Below, in pieces: positions 6,800 to 40,165 of a stretch of 64,000 nt of DNA. A program made the translations under genes and the position numbers. This DNA comes from Octopus vulgaris (Eukaryota). The DNA lies in contig OX597819.1 of the NCBI GenBank assembly GCA_951406725.2, positions 28,644,001-28,708,000 of the forward strand, written 5' to 3'. A model generated the notes under the pieces. The model did no database searches and was not told the origin of the DNA. It was given only the letters and a program-made list of their open reading frames with translations. Each line of letters begins with the position of its first letter. Positions within the stretch are counted from its first letter, which is position 1.

Positions 6800-8590
6800 T
6801 GATGACAGGGGCTAATAAAGAAGTAAATCATTAATTAGTTTAAAGCCCAGCTTTTGTATTTTCAAGTGCTAAATACATAAATGAATATACAACAAAAACA
6901 ACAACAAAGTAAACAGTTAAAAGTAAATATTGACAGCTTACAAATTGTTGATTACGTACTTAGCTTTGCCAATCAAATACTAAGTCAATGGAAATGAAAG
7001 CAGTTTAAATTTCACTCCAGTTATTTTGAGTAGTGGTTTGTCATTCCAGTTGTTTTGAATCCTGATTCTTCATTCCAGTTAATTTGAATTTTGAGCCTTC
7101 ATTCCACTTGTTTTAAATCCTGATCTTTCTATTCTTGTTGTTTTAACACTCCTGATCCTTCATTCCAGTCATCTTGAATACTGATCATTCTTTTCACTTG
7201 TTTTGAATCCTTGCACTTAATTTCAATTGTTTGAACCATGATTCTTCATCCCAGTTCTTTTGAATCTCAAATCCTTATTCCAGTAATTTTTAACCGAGAG
7301 CCTTCATTCAAAGTCATTTTAAATCTTGATAATTTATTCCACTTGTTTTGAATCTGAATCTTTCATTCCAGTTGTTTCGAATTTTCACTTTTCATTCAAA
7401 TTATTTTGAATTATGATCCTTTATGCTAACTGTTTTGAGTTCTGATTTTTCATTCAAGTCATTTAAAATCCTGATCCTTTATTTTACTTGTTTTGAATCC
7501 TGGCACTTTATTCCATCTTTGAATACTGATCTGACATTTTGGTTGTTTTGAAGCCATATATTTCATCCCAGTTGTTTTGACTTCTGATCCTTAATCCCAG
7601 TTGTTTTGAATCCCGACCCTTAACTCTAGATGTTTTAAATTCTGATCCTTCAGTCTAGCTGTTTTAAATCTTAATCCATTATTCCAGTTGTTTTAAGTTC
7701 TAATCCTTCATTTCAGTTTTTTTTTTTGAATCCTCACACTTAATTTCAGTTGTTTTGCATTTTGATACTTCATTCCAGTTGTTTTAAATCATGATGCTTT
7801 ATTCCAGTTGTTTTGAATCCTGATCCTTCCCCAGCTGTTTTGAATCCTGATCTTTCATTCTAGTTGTTTTGAATCCTAATCCTCCATTTCAGTCCTTTTG
7901 AATTGTTATGCTTCGTTCCAGGTCTTTTGAATCCTGATTCTTTATTCCAGTTGCTTCGAATCCTAACATTTGATACTAATTGTTCTGAATTCTCAACTTC
8001 ATTCCAGTTGTTTTGAATCCTGATCTTTCATTATAACCATGTTGAGCCCTCACATTTCATTCTAGTTGTTTGAATCTTCATACTTCATTCCAAATATTTT
8101 TAATCTCATTCCTTCATTCTAGTTTGTTTTGAATCTTGATCCTACATTCCACTTATTTTGTATCCTGATCCTTCATCTCAGTTATTTTGAAATCTGATCC
8201 TTCATTCTACATGTTTTGCATCCTAATCCTTCTCTTTAGTTTTTTTACACTCTGATCTTTCAGTCCAGTTGTTTTGAATCCAGATTCTTTATTCCTATTA
8301 TTCTGAATCCTCACACTTCGATCCAGTTGTTTTAAATCACGATCCAGCATTCCGGTTATTCTGAATCTTCCCACTTTATTCCTGTTGTTTTAAATCATGA
8401 TCCATCATTCCAGTTGTTTTGAACCTTCACACTTCATTCCAGTTGTTTTGAATTCTGATCCTTCATTCCAGTTGTTTTGAATCCAGATCTTTCATTCTAG
8501 TTGTTTTAAAACCTTGATCCTTCATTCATCTTGTTTTGAATCCTGGTTCACATTCCAATTGTTTTGAACTCTGGCACTTCATTCTTGCAG
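6800..8590. repeat. ~210-bp leader followed by ~54 degenerate copies of a 29-bp minisatellite
   Basis: Consensus TTCATTCCAGTTGTTTTGAATCCTGATCC over ~7010-8590; leader homologous to 12130-12314. Confidence 0.9.
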
Positions 8591-12129: not shown

Positions 12130-12735
12130 GATGATAGAGGCAAACGAAGAAGTAACTTAAATTAGTTTAAAATTCTACTTCTGTATTTTCAAGTGCTAAA
12201 AGAAAAAATAAAGCAAACAGCAGGAAATAAATAGGGATTGATAGTTTACAAAATACTAATTACTTTCTTGGCTTTGTCTGTCGAGTACTAAATCACTGGA
12301 AGTGAGAGCAGTTCAATTTACATTGCAGTTGTTTAGAATCCTGACACTTCATTCTAATAGTTTTGAATCCTGATCCTTCATCTCAGTATTTTGAATCTTG
12401 ATCCTTCATGCGAGTTGTTTTGAATCATGACACTTCATTTTATTTGTTTTAAATCCTGATCCTTCAGTCCAGTTGTTTTAAATCCTGACACTCCATTCAA
12501 GTTGTTTTGAGTCCTGATCTTCCATTCCAGTTGTTTTTAATCCTCACACTTCATTTCAGTTTTTTTGAATTCTAATCCTTCATCCCAATTATTTTGAATT
12601 TTAATACTTCATTTTTCATTGTTTTGAATCTTGATACTTCATCCAGTTGGTTTGAATTTTGATCCTCCATTCTACTTGTTTTGAATCCTGATTTTTCATT
12701 TCACTTATTTTAAGTGTGCGTATTTCATTTTAGTA
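12130..12735. repeat. Second copy of the leader + 29-bp minisatellite (~14 units)
   Basis: gatgatagaggc...ttctgtattttcaagtgctaaa...ggaagtgagagcagttc, then ttcattccagttgttttgaatcctgatcc units. Confidence 0.85.
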
Positions 12736-23669: not shown

Positions 23670-24320
23670 ATAGTTAAGTTAAGTTAATTTTTTGGCTCAA
23701 AAAGCAAAAGCAAGGCCATGTAGGGGGACATGGAGTTATGTACAGGGAGGATGTTCATGCAAAGAGAGTCTTTGAACTGAGTGGTCGTCGGCATCTTCAC
23801 TACCTTGTCTGGCATCTTATTCCACGGATCTGCAACCCAGACAGAGAAAGCCCCTCTCCTTCGATTGAGATGAAATCGTCGCAGATAGAGCTTTTCGGAG
23901 AGAAGCTTTTCTGGAGCAAGAGTGAAGAACAACTCTTTCGAGAGGTTACACTTTCCACTTATGATGTTGTGAGCGAGAATGAGATCAGCACGGCGGCGTC
24001 GTTTTTCTAGAGAATAAAGGTCGAGCATCTTCAGCCTTTCTTCATAAGACAAATGCTTGAGACCAAGAACCATGCGGGTAGCCAGCTTCTGGACTCTTTC
24101 GAGATGATGTATGTCTTTGAGGAGATAAGGAGAAGAGGCTTGAATCCCATACTCCAATATGGGTCTCACCAGTGTGACATAGAGCATAAGGAATATGGCT
24201 GCTGTGAGCATTCTGAATGACCGTCGAATCAATAACAGAACTCCACGTGCTTTGTTGGCAGCATGGACGCATTGGGCCGAAGGCGAAAAGGAAGAATCCA
24301 CCAAGATACCCAGATCCTAG
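23670..24320 (-). pseudogene. CR1/L2-group LINE ORF2 C-terminal fragment with (TTAAC)n tail
   Basis: ORF 23684-24304: LYVTLVRPILEYG...LERVQKLATRMVLGLKHLSYEERLKMLDLYSLEKRRRRADLI; short tandem tail; 5' truncated. Confidence 0.92.
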
Positions 24321-24989: not shown

Positions 24990-25773
24990 CACACACACAT
25001 GTGGTTAATGGTTAAGGTGTTGATTCAAGATTGCAAGTTCATGGTTTCAGTTCCCAGACTGGCTTTTTGTTCAAAGGGAATGCTGACCTACCCACCTAGC
25101 TGGTGGGAGTACTATCATTCAAAAGCTACAACAATGTGAGAAAGTGCACTGTGACCAGTGGTGTAAAACAACATCTAATAGTCTGGTCAATTCAGTAATA
25201 CAGTGAGGGGAATGGTGTTATTGTGGGTGCAGATGTAACTGTGTTGGAAGAAGTTTGCTTCCCAACCACATGGTTCAAGGTTCAATCCCACTGTGTGACA
25301 CCTTTGGCAAGTGACTCCTACTATAAACTTGGGTTGAACAAAGCCTTGTGAGTGGATTTGGTAGGTGGAAACTGCAAAAAGCATGTCCTGTACATGTGTA
25401 CAAATGTGCATCTTTGTGTCTGTTTTTGTCTCCCACCACCTTGTGACAACCAGTATTGATGTGTTTACATCCCCCTTAACTTAGTGGTTCAGCAAAAGAG
25501 ACTGACAGTTAATTTCAGGCTTAAAAAAGTACTGGGGTCTATTCATACCCTTGTCTAAGGTGTCATGTTTGCACTTATATGAGTGTGTGTGTTTGTGTAT
25601 ACATGTGTATTATATATATATATGTATATTTTATGTCTATATATATATAATATATTGTTGTATTTCGGAATGGTCATTTTGCCAGTTTAGACAATAAAAA
25701 CACACACACTATATATTTGGCGTTACTTTGCTTCAGTGTTATTTATTTTTTACTTTAAACTTAATCTTATTTC

Positions 25774-25818
25774 GGCCAGAGTTCTTTCGTCACACTCCTG
25801 TGACCTCATCAGTGGTCC
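25774..25818 (-). ncRNA. Type I hammerhead ribozyme motif (copy 1)
   Basis: Minus strand: GGACCA-CUGAUGA-G-GUCACA(GGAG)UGUGAC-GAAA-G(AA)C-UC^UGGCC. Confidence 0.8.
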
Positions 25819-26021
25819 TTTGCTTTCTTCTTTTTTATTTGTGTGTCTCTCCTTACTAACCGTCAGTCATTTTGTATTTCTATTCTATTTTGTATTTCTA
25901 TATTGTTGTATTTCAGAATGGTCATTTTGCCAGTTTAGACAATAAAAACACACACACTATATATTTGGCGTTACTTTGCTTCAGTGTTATTTATTTTTTA
26001 CTTTAAACTTAATCTTATTTT

Positions 26022-26066
26022 GGCCAGAGTTCTTTCGTCACACTCTTGTGACCTCATCAGTGGTCC
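26022..26066 (-). ncRNA. Type I hammerhead ribozyme motif (copy 2)
   Basis: As copy 1, with one change in the stem II loop. Confidence 0.8.
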
Positions 26067-26269
26067 TTTGCTTTCTTCTTTTTTATTTGTGTGTCTCTCC
26101 TTACTAACCGTCAGTCATTTTGTATTTCTATTCTATTTTGTATTTCTATATTGTTGTATTTCGGAATGGTCATTTTGCCAGTTTAGACAATAAAAACACA
26201 CACACTATATATTTGGCGTTACTTTGCTTCAGTGTTATTTATTTTTTACTTTAAACTTAATCTTATTTC

Positions 26270-26314
26270 GGCCAGAGTTCTTTCGTCACACTCCTGTGAC
26301 CTCATCAGTGGTCC
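26270..26314 (-). ncRNA. Type I hammerhead ribozyme motif (copy 3)
   Basis: Same as copy 1. Confidence 0.8.
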
Positions 26315-26786
26315 TTTGCTTTCTTCTTTTTTATTTGTGTGTCTCTCCTTACTAACCGTCAGTCATTTTGTATTTCTATTCTATTTTGTATTTCTATATA
26401 TAATATATATATATATGGACATACATACAGTGTGGCAACTTGCTCAAGTGTCTTCTATTATAGCCTTGGGCTGCCCAAAGTCTTGTGAGTGGATTTGGTA
26501 GAGAAACTGAAAGAAGCCTGTTGTATATATGTGTGTGTGTGTGTGTATAATTGTGTATTTCTGTCTGTGTTTGTCCCCCACTATCACTTGACAACTGATG
26601 TGTGTTTACATTCCTTTAGCTTAGCAGTTCAGTAAAAGAGACTGATAGAATAAGTACCAGGCTTACAAAGAATAAGTCTAAGGGTCGAATTCTTTGAATA
26701 ATAGGTGGTGCTCCAGCATAGCCACAGTCAAAATGACTGAAACAAATAAAAGAACAAAAGAAGATATATATACATACATACATATA

Positions 26787-37254: not shown

Positions 37255-37763
37255 TAGCAGTAATACCCATTGTTGGTTGGGTAATTACTTTTACTGTTTC
37301 TTGGGCCGAGAAGCTAGAAAAATGGGTATCTTTATATATAAAAGTGAACTTGTCTTCCATGTGTGTATTAAATAAGAGAAAAACGTCCTGTCATGTGTGT
37401 ATCAAATAAGAGAAAAACATGTAATAATTGAAGTAAAAAAAAGATGGATTTGTTATATGAACTTCTGTTTGTTCTTGAAGTTGCAATCCAGCAACTTTTA
37501 GTGTTTGGTCCTGACTTTTATTAATGCTCATGGCAAAAGAAAGTTGGATAGGAAACTGTAAGAGCTTAAATTTGAATGGGACATAAGATGGTATAACTGG
37601 TATGCGAGGAACAAAGATGGTGTCATATTTACCATGAGTGAGAATATTTGCCTCAACGTAGTTTGTCATAGGTTTGTGCACAATTAGTGTTGCCTCCCTT
37701 GAACCATTTACTTTTGCTTTGTGGGACAAACAAACACACAGACAGACTCTCTCTTTTATATAT
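37254..37763 (-). mobile_element. Internally deleted Helitron with a Pif1-family helicase remnant
   Basis: 3' CTAG with acccattgttggttgggt hairpin; ORF 37391-37729 FVPRIPVIPSYVPFKFKLLQFPIQLSFAMSINKSQDQTL matches the Helitron helicase motif QFP..L.FAM.INKSQGQTL. Confidence 0.88.
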
Positions 37764-38315
37764 GCAATTCAGAGAAGCTACACAAAGAAAATCATCTCAA
37801 TACAAAATATCAGCTACTGGAAAAGACTGAAAGTATTAAACCTCTTCTCCCTAGAGTGGAGGCGGGAGAGATATGCGGTGATATACATCTGGAAAATCCT
37901 GGAGGGTCTTGTCCCAAACTTTGGCATTCAAAGTTATCCCAACCGCAGAACGGGGCGCCACTGCATGGTGCCAAAGATTCCAACATCACTATCAAAATAC
38001 AGGTCCAGATACTGCAACAGCTTGGGTTTCAGAGGACCACAGCTCTTTAACATCTTCCCTAAATGCCTGAGAGACTTACATGGTGTGGATGTGGGTTTCT
38101 TTAAAACTAAACTAGATCTCTTCTTGTCGGGAGTCCCAGCTGAACCTACCTCATGACAGGAAACGCAGATGCGGGCAGCAGCATCGAACTCCCTTGTTGA
38201 TCAAGTGCCACGTATCAGAGGTGGATTCATATATTAGTGTAGCTCATTCAGCAGTCGTGCCCCAGCATGGCCGCGGCCTTCGGGCTAAAACATTTTAAAG
38301 GATTTTTTAAGGATT
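37764..38315 (+). pseudogene. CR1/L2-group LINE 3' fragment with 3' stem-loop tail
   Basis: IQRSYTKKI..SYWKRLKVLNLFSLEWRRERYAVIYIWKILEGLVPN...GPQLFNIFPKCLR..FKTKLDLFL..P.EP. Confidence 0.9.
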
Positions 38316-38563: not shown

Positions 38564-40165
38564 CAGTTGTGGCCAAAATGTTAAGAACAGCATTGTTTTC
38601 GTCAGAAAAGTAGGTATAATTTTTATCCAAAGTTGTTTTATATTCTATAATTTTCACAGACAATAAATACGATATTATTTGTTATTGTCTGAGATTTTAG
38701 TGTCATTTGAGAGGATAATACAAAAGTTATGGATGACTTAGTGATTTACTGCAAAACCCATGGCGGCCAAAAGGATCAGAACGGTTGCTTTTACTCCGTG
38801 TTTTAGTATATTTAACCGGCGAACTCTAATGTTTTGAATTTGTTTACGTGATGGCTCGTTTACTAAACCTTAGTAAGAATATCTGCAGTATACTTTGTTA
38901 ATATAATGCCACTTACTCCGTTACCAATTTGTCTGCAGATTATTAAGCTTCGAAAGAAAGATAATTTAAGTATTGGGTCTATTGCAAAGATTGTGAACAA
39001 GTCAAAAAGTGTTGTACACGGTATTCTTAAAGTCTACGATGATTGTGGTTCGTGTGAAGCAAGAAAGTCTACAGGCAGGCCAAGGAAAACGACCAAGAGA
39101 GAAGATCGTGCTATGGTAAAGTTGGTTAAAAAGAACAGATTTAAAACTGCAGCTGCTGTTTCTCGGGAAATGAGCATTGTATTGAAGAAAACTTTATCTT
39201 GAAAAACTGTGTCTCGTCGTTTCGTTGAACATGACCTACAAGCAAGAGCACCTGCAGTGAAGCCACTGATCAGCTCCAAGAATAAAAATTGTCGTCTTAC
39301 CTTTGCAACCGAACATGTGTTATGGTCTCAAGAAAAATGGCAAATGGTGCATTTCAGTGATGAATCTAAGTTTATGTTATTTGGCTCAGATGGGAAAAGG
39401 TACATTTGTCGAAAAGTAGGTGAAAAATTGTTGCCTAAATGCCTTAAGACTAGTATTAAATTCGGTGGAGGAAGTGTCATGGTTTGGGAGATGATATCTG
39501 GAGATGGTGTGAGCCCTTTGGTACGATTACATGGAAAGGTAAATGCAGGAGTTTATAAACAACTTATAAAAGATCATGTCTTGCCTGTGCTGAGAAATTC
39601 AACTAAGCGACCACCCATATTCATGCAGGACAATGCCTCATGTCACAAGGCTAAGGTGGTCATGAACTTACTCAAGGTTGAAAAGGTTATTGTTATAGAT
39701 TGGCCTGCGCAAAGCTCAGATCTCAATCCTATTGAAAATGTGTGGAATATTCTAGGAGAACGTTCGAAAGCCAGGAATCCTAAAACAACCGAGCAATTAT
39801 GGAATGCCCTTCAGGAAGAATGGAATAAGATCACCCAGCAAAAAATTGAAAATTTAATTTCCTCATGCAGTCGAAGATGTCACACTAAATATTAAATAAT
39901 TCCAGTATTCTCTGTCATTTTTGATTATTTTGTTATTTTTTCAACTGTTCTGATCATTTTGGCCGCCATGGGTTTTGCAGTAAATCACTAAATCATCCAT
40001 AACTTTTGTATTATCCTCTCAAATTACACCAAAATCTCAGACAATAACAAATAATATCGTATTTATTGTCTGTGAAAATTATAGAATATAAAACAACTTT
40101 GGTAAAAATTTATACCTACTTTTCTGACGAAGACAATGCCAGTCTTAACATTTTGTCCGCAACTG
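38564..40165 (+). mobile_element. Tc1 (DD34E) DNA transposon, near full length, IR/DR type
   Basis: TA TSDs; 224-bp TIRs (38564-38787, 39942-40165) starting CAGTTG, each with outer and inner direct repeats (ggccaaaa.g.t.agaac.g). Confidence 0.97.
38851..39895 (+). pseudogene. Tc1 transposase, disabled
   Basis: HTH + GRPRKTT; HFSDESKF, FMQDNASCH and SSDLNPIENVW with 34 residues between D and E; in-frame TGA at 39200-39202; N-terminal frameshift or decayed short intron; short C-terminal deletion. Confidence 0.93.

Follow-up and report, generated by a model that had tools for sequence, protein, structure and literature searches.

The window analyzed here, a stretch of 64,000 nucleotides of Octopus vulgaris DNA, carries three head-to-tail copies of a 248-bp unit, each with a hammerhead ribozyme motif on the minus strand. 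The array raises two questions: whether it is a retrozyme, and how a tandem of ribozyme-bearing units came to stand at this site.

Architecture of the array

A repeat scan found the tandem at window positions 25651-26399 (period 248, 3.0 copies, 98% matches), which confirmed its presence in the assembly; the copy number is that of the assembly alone. The initial annotation had described an exact 3 x 248-bp repeat. The tandem and its three copies held, and the exactness did not: unit 1 (25651-25898, minus strand) and unit 3 (26147-26394, minus strand) are the same in sequence, and unit 2 (25899-26146, minus strand) deviates from them at 3 of 248 sites. Each of the three is a C>T or G>A change; CpG sites account for two, and one is in loop II of the hammerhead. 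The 248-nt unit is AT-rich (32% GC). A 5-bp TATAT overlap is common to both array ends and both internal junctions, giving three 253-nt copies at a spacing of 248. TA-rich tracts, listed without strand, adjoin the array at the 3' end of the element (25607-25655, the insertion target) and at its 5' end (26395-26417, beginning with the TATAT overlap).

Two related repeats flank the array at 25290-25510 and 26427-26650; they are 80-93% alike in three blocks, are spaced by ~1,140, and resemble what we take to be a common octopus SINE. Elsewhere in the window, two diverged arrays of the same 29-bp minisatellite were found at 7012-8568 (~54 copies) and 12321-12711 (~13 copies). By eye, the ORF pieces at 23684-24316, 37662-38156 and 39203-39895 resemble the C-terminal parts of LINEs in two cases and a Tc1/mariner transposase in one. 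A host exon was rejected as the identity of the unit, as all 15 window ORFs of at least 150 aa look like pieces of repeats or transposons.

Minimal type I hammerhead motifs

Minimal type I hammerhead motifs lie on the minus strand at 25774-25818 in unit 1, 26022-26066 in unit 2 and 26270-26314 in unit 3, with predicted cuts after the C at 25779, after 26027 and after 26275, respectively. Each reads CUGAUGA, one extra G, a 6-bp helix II, GAAA and CUC^UGGCC, with a helix III of 2 bp closed by an AA loop and a helix I of 5 bp with one bulge. The core CUGANGA / GAAA / NUH, the extra base after position 9 and the G10.1-C11.1 pair are present in all three units, and the core is canonical (A9, CUC). 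The intact core, 6-bp stem II, minus-strand CUC site and 2-nt stem III loop that had been annotated from the letters were recovered in every unit; the GGAG loop II reported for all was found in units 1 and 3, with AGAG in unit 2. G15.2 pairs with C16.2 and the AA loop 3 is non-palindromic. The two central A-A mismatches foreseen for a dimer proved right, with a helix III 6-mer duplex at +1.4 kcal/mol, and the motif is supported as the dimer-dependent kind that the annotation had supposed.

Searched with a loose core pattern, the window gave 12 matches, with 3.2 expected by chance; three of the 12 are the array units. Rfam gave no hammerhead match over the window at gathering thresholds, and around the array at E<=5 it returned only microsatellite-like miRNA matches and no hammerhead. 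The 57-nt motif folds no better than shuffled sequences (z about -1). Since Rfam is silent and the fold unexceptional, the hammerhead call is based on the core letters, the helices and the position in a Penelope pseudo-LTR.

The motif shares with the minimal hammerheads described from metazoan Penelope-like pseudo-LTRs (Cervera and De la Pena 2014, PMC4209133) the long helix II (6 bp), the short helix I (5 bp), the single extra base between positions 9 and 10.1, the G10.1-C11.1 pair, the tiny helix III and the pseudo-LTR location. As there, most copies in the octopus are single and truncated, and opposite-strand pairs occur nearby. Unlike the motifs of that description, the array has a non-palindromic loop 3 (AA) and three copies head to tail at 248 nt, and most octopus family copies have C at position 9.

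The parent Penelope-like element

Each unit comes from an octopus Penelope-like element, of which it is the 5'-truncated 3' end: a pseudo-LTR with a hammerhead of the minimal type I form. The initial annotation had not recognized the unit as one end of such an element, which is autonomous and abundant. The 2.8-Gb genome (227 contigs) contains 1,674 candidate places matched by the unit, of which 40 were scored. Exact hammerhead 20-mers number 757 with A9 and 3,450 with C9, so more than 4,000 motif copies are present genome-wide. At the 27 other best-matching loci, the first ~238 bases form one end of a longer element, and the other end is variable and often inverted. None of these 27 is a 248-nt tandem; most begin at the same end, many continue into shared sequence, and several are paired with an inverted copy.

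The coding part of the element was recovered from 10 long loci, taken from 150 protein matches and chosen for long ORFs or clustering. Four of the 10 have ORFs of 1,245-1,312 codons on the hammerhead strand, and elsewhere in the genome there are intact ORFs of 1,310 aa with reverse transcriptase (RT) and GIY-YIG. In four loci (L079, L081, L085 and L087) the ORF is flanked on either side by the unit, as partial tandem pseudo-LTRs. RT and C-terminal GIY-YIG endonuclease motifs were found in the L079 ORF, and the Atlas grouped the protein with RVT_1, GIY-YIG and HTH_animal clusters (0.96-0.97). No significant Pfam match was obtained for the RT-endonuclease fragment or for two full ORFs, and a PDB scan of the element protein gave one chance match and none that was significant. 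The protein is 98-99% identical to two Octopus vulgaris proteins, and none of its matches bore the name of a Penelope clade. Counted from the first Met, the L079 ORF (L079:2794-6714) encodes 1,307 aa; ahead of the RT it includes a low-complexity block of ~250 residues that is rich in Asn and Ser.

One hammerhead of L079 lies ~135 nt before the first ATG and the second 4,546 nt further on; from this spacing, the natural ribozyme-to-ribozyme unit of the family is the whole 4.5-kb element. The 248-bp unit of the array is the last ~234 nt of the element plus a 14-nt junction. In unit 1 the element part includes the first 26 nt of the ORF (25652-25677, minus strand; first ATG at 25677, corresponding in position to the first Met of the L079 ORF), which run up to the tail-less 3' end usual in the family. 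The private 5'-truncation junction (25885-25898, minus strand) re-copies 12 nt of the adjoining element. Both features recur in each unit.

A sample of 80 loci, drawn by position from a single contig, gave 63 in which a pattern recognized the 3' end: 34 are tail-less and end where the array ends, and 29 have a tail of ~50 nt from the ORF start, a signature explained for such Penelope ends in PMC11167929. Of these recognized ends, 47 run into TA or TAA repeats. By arrangement, 37 of the 80 loci are solo, 41 have an inverted partner and two have a direct neighbor.

The element protein has a CX4CX2C linker and CCHH, which agree with the CX2-5CxxC/CCHH criterion for Neptune or Nematis. Judged by the features examined, the array is a truncated copy of a canonical EN+ Penelope-like element of Neptune or Nematis type. 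Like the canonical EN+ elements described by Craig et al. (2021, PMC8557442), the octopus element has the RT followed by a C-terminal GIY-YIG, the CX4CX2C linker, CCHH, partial tandems, an inverted 5'-truncated partner, an optional tail and TA targets; its tail is ~50 nt long, versus 30-40 in theirs. The octopus rows given there belong to the Naiad and Hydra families, which differ in domain order or are without CCHH. Naiad was rejected for the present element because its endonuclease is C-terminal, Hydra because CCHH is present, and a stand-alone ribozyme device because the unit is a retroelement end.

No description of this octopus family's ribozyme was found in the literature searched, a search that lay outside Repbase and the supplement of PMC7229834, which may list cephalopod examples. 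The octopus repeat annotation (PMC13282606) reports active Penelope families, and ribozymes are absent from its main text.

Other parts of the family are also locally repeated. A 5.77-kb tandem of inverted element pairs with at least three periods (L082-L083, C19:47744000-47763000) is another local amplification, and several near-equal truncated copies occur on the small contigs C35, C36 and C44 (L069, L071-L077, L084), which perhaps belong to a larger repeated block. ORFs of ~347 codons occur on C35 and C36, and LINE-like RT pieces stand beside the copies in L084.

Ribozyme core changes in younger subfamilies

A9 is a near-invariant base of the hammerhead core. Three groups of copies were compared, sampled by position, with 23 of 30 A9, 23 of 25 C9/CUC and 23 of 25 C9/CUU copies used; a longer exact pattern served to select the C9 groups, and inverted partners of one insertion were counted apart. 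With the ribozyme columns excluded, divergence from the group majority was 4.7% for A9, 2.6% for C9/CUC and 0.3% for C9/CUU. Exact 34-mers occur 1,597 times genome-wide for C9/CUC and 1,374 times for C9/CUU, and the 10 long loci show 22 motifs, every one with C9 and with U at the cleavage position (U17). A midpoint-rooted tree of 71 sequences and 234 columns forms a ladder from A9 to C9/CUC to C9/CUU, with low support at many nodes. The array stands among the younger A9 copies, on a long shared branch. Exceptions to the ladder are L054 (A9), which groups with the youngest copies, and L117/L118 (C9), which fall among the old ones.

These comparisons suggest that successively younger subfamilies changed the core from A9 to C and then the cleavage triplet from CUC to CUU. 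Core changes usually cut activity sharply, and some are tolerated (PMC3088659). No paper testing A9C was found in our literature search, and the text of PMC3088659 (section 8) names no A9 variant. Going by sequence, the C9 core is likely to entail a loss of activity; the additional G that follows position 9 might compensate in part for A9. The element may therefore be one that spreads without a canonical ribozyme, and we lean slightly towards the view that the youngest, ORF-intact subfamily spreads with a ribozyme that is dead or much slower.

In this youngest subfamily, GTAAGT stands ~20 nt before the hammerhead core (L079:2634-2639 and 7180-7185), where the array has AATAAA. The GTAAGT of L079 looks like a splice donor; Penelope is described as having a 5'-UTR intron next to its ribozyme (PMC4209133).

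Origin of the tandem

The array is unique in the genome by its junctions and its ribozyme spacing. Its head-to-tail junction 26-mer occurs twice and its private 5'-junction 30-mer three times, all within the array, and it is the only place where exact motifs form same-strand hammerhead pairs 231-261 nt apart. The genome-wide pair search covered these spacings only, and other short tandems of the family may exist. No short direct pair was listed in 129 loci; a laxer cut-off then gave one site, L115/L116, the sole direct-neighbor site among the 80 sampled loci. Two insertions are stacked there, the older one diverged and separated by a TA tract from the younger. The older pseudo-LTR relative (L115:1683-1832), in which a CUGAAGA-like core remains, stands before the younger copy across this tract.

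The three units share seven substitutions, each of them present in at most 6 of 68 other copies and six of them in at most two. The comparison set consisted of 69 other copies, after removal of 11 of the 80 in which coverage was below 200 of 234 columns. Had the units arisen at insertion and decayed by the 3.5% of their subfamily (from the 10 copies of nearest type), three or fewer inter-unit differences would have p about 6e-8. Because seven rare substitutions are shared and three sites separate the units, triplication most likely followed insertion and took place by DNA-level copying, not by rolling reverse transcription. We consider it probable, with good though not full confidence, that the array is a truncated Penelope-like 3' end that inserted into a TA tract and was triplicated in place, by DNA-level copying and well after insertion, and we predict that it is a dead-end, retrozyme-like minisatellite.

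Under this in-place reading, target-primed reverse transcription would have halted after ~234 nt and re-primed once, leaving the private 14-nt junction. The single inserted copy would then have decayed neutrally, until slippage or unequal exchange through the TATAT overlap gave a dimer and then a trimer. In its simplest form the timeline would be one insertion, ~3.4% decay and a duplication ~0.4% ago; with the octopus rate of 0.0036 per million years (PMC13282606), very rough dates would be ~9 million years ago for the insertion and ~1 million years ago for the duplication. Against this stands the A-B-A order of the units, with all three changes in the middle one. Chance would give this order in 1 case in 9 if the changes are independent; otherwise, two unlike dimer alleles must have exchanged sequence. 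Units made at insertion could also have been homogenized by gene conversion, which would hide an older origin.

The same A-B-A order would arise if the copy number were an assembly artefact, for example two alleles merged over a real locus of one or two units. Units 1 and 3 are identical, every difference is in unit 2, and the junction is known from the assembly alone. We nevertheless regard an artefact as unlikely: the differences are C>T and G>A transitions, two of them at CpG, as in real decay and not like indel-type errors, and in an assembly of 227 contigs for 2.8 Gb a 744-bp array should have been spanned by long reads. Still less probable is that the array was inserted as a multimer, through rolling reverse transcription of a 248-nt circle, as initially annotated, or through repeated template jumps, from a source locus that had already decayed. 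The unit length is within the 170-400 nt of metazoan retrozymes (PMC7229834), all three have an intact core and a true Penelope 3' end as their starting point, and a rolling model for Penelope tandems was proposed in PMC4209133. However, no source locus with the array junction was found in the genome, the junction being confined to this site, and the unit lacks a part of the ORF that was required in the anole element, the only one tested (PMC11167929). Both array ends also coincide with the junction. At the 5' end the match is exact, and a rolling copy would have been free to stop at any position there, unless TATAT is where the endonuclease resolves. The seven shared against three separating substitutions speak for a later triplication.

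Retrozyme status and predicted activity

With at least two tandem units that each carry a complete type I hammerhead, the array falls within what Li, Clavereau and Pollet (2026, 10.64898/2026.07.22.740005) use as a working definition of non-LTR retrozymes. No spread as a tandem family was seen: the junction and the 231-261-nt spacing occur at one locus only, other spacings being judged in the sampled loci. The predicted 248-nt circle is not highly self-paired (31% paired; z = 0.09 against 60 shuffles). The array is thus a retrozyme in the working sense only.

Like the metazoan non-LTR retrozymes described by Cervera and de la Pena (2020, PMC7229834) and Li et al. (2026), the array has short AT-rich tandem units with one type I hammerhead each and derives from a Penelope pseudo-LTR. 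Unlike them, its motif matches in anatomy the minimal form and not the canonical one, and the tandem is found at one locus only. The circles of PMC7229834 are highly self-paired, whereas the octopus circle is predicted to be poorly paired, and the octopus array, in contrast to known retrozymes, is known from DNA sequence alone.

If the motif behaves like other Penelope hammerheads, it would cleave weakly and depend on a dimer or on protein. A 248-nt RNA would also, by analogy with the anole element, lack the ORF stretch that the element protein needs for copying: in the anole the first 172 nt of the ORF are required in the RNA (PMC11167929), and the array unit has 26 nt, although the anole element is of the Poseidon clade and the requirement may not carry over. 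On these models, the array is unlikely to function as a retrozyme.

The alternative is that the array arose in place and is now a newborn retrozyme, transcribed, cleaving as a dimer and giving a 248-nt linear or circular RNA. Its agreement with the working definition of Li et al. (2026) speaks for this, as does the route proposed in their discussion for vertebrates, in which a Penelope end is locally amplified into a tandem. The canonical core (A9, CUC) is also in favor, and in predictions on the full transcript helix II pairs at 0.36-0.75, units 1 and 3 having 0.74. The same predictions give helix I a pairing of no more than 0.2-0.4, and the non-palindromic AA loop 3, with its unfavorable dimer helix III, argues against cleavage as a dimer. 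Minimal hammerheads are reported to cleave weakly even as dimers and trimers (PMC4209133), one of nine Xenopus dimers cleaved (Li et al. 2026), and the anole ribozyme requires the element's protein, hammerhead mutants of that element still inserting in vitro (PMC11167929). A newborn retrozyme at this locus is accordingly quite improbable in our judgment, and we retain the dead-end minisatellite as the preferred reading.

Significance for the family

The array locus is ordinary: both the ribozyme motif and the retroelement that carries it are of established kinds, the duplication was local, and hammerheads of this kind and their link to retrozymes are already published. It provides a clean, roughly datable example of a Penelope end-piece turned into a retrozyme-like tandem, from a mollusc whose genome also contains the parent element. 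It is very doubtful that a retrozyme has been caught here at birth, the triplicated end-piece still cleaving and making a 248-nt circular RNA while the parent lineage went on spreading despite the loss of its canonical core (A9 to C, then CUC to CUU); if true, this would mean that the fates of ribozyme and transposon separate within one genome.

For insertion in vitro, the hammerhead was dispensable (PMC11167929), and Craig et al. consider that the ribozymes may be parasites of the element (PMC8557442). The octopus family has three natural ribozyme versions of decreasing age (A9/CUC, C9/CUC and C9/CUU) and an element with intact ORFs, so that the need of Penelope elements for the hammerhead in vivo becomes directly testable.
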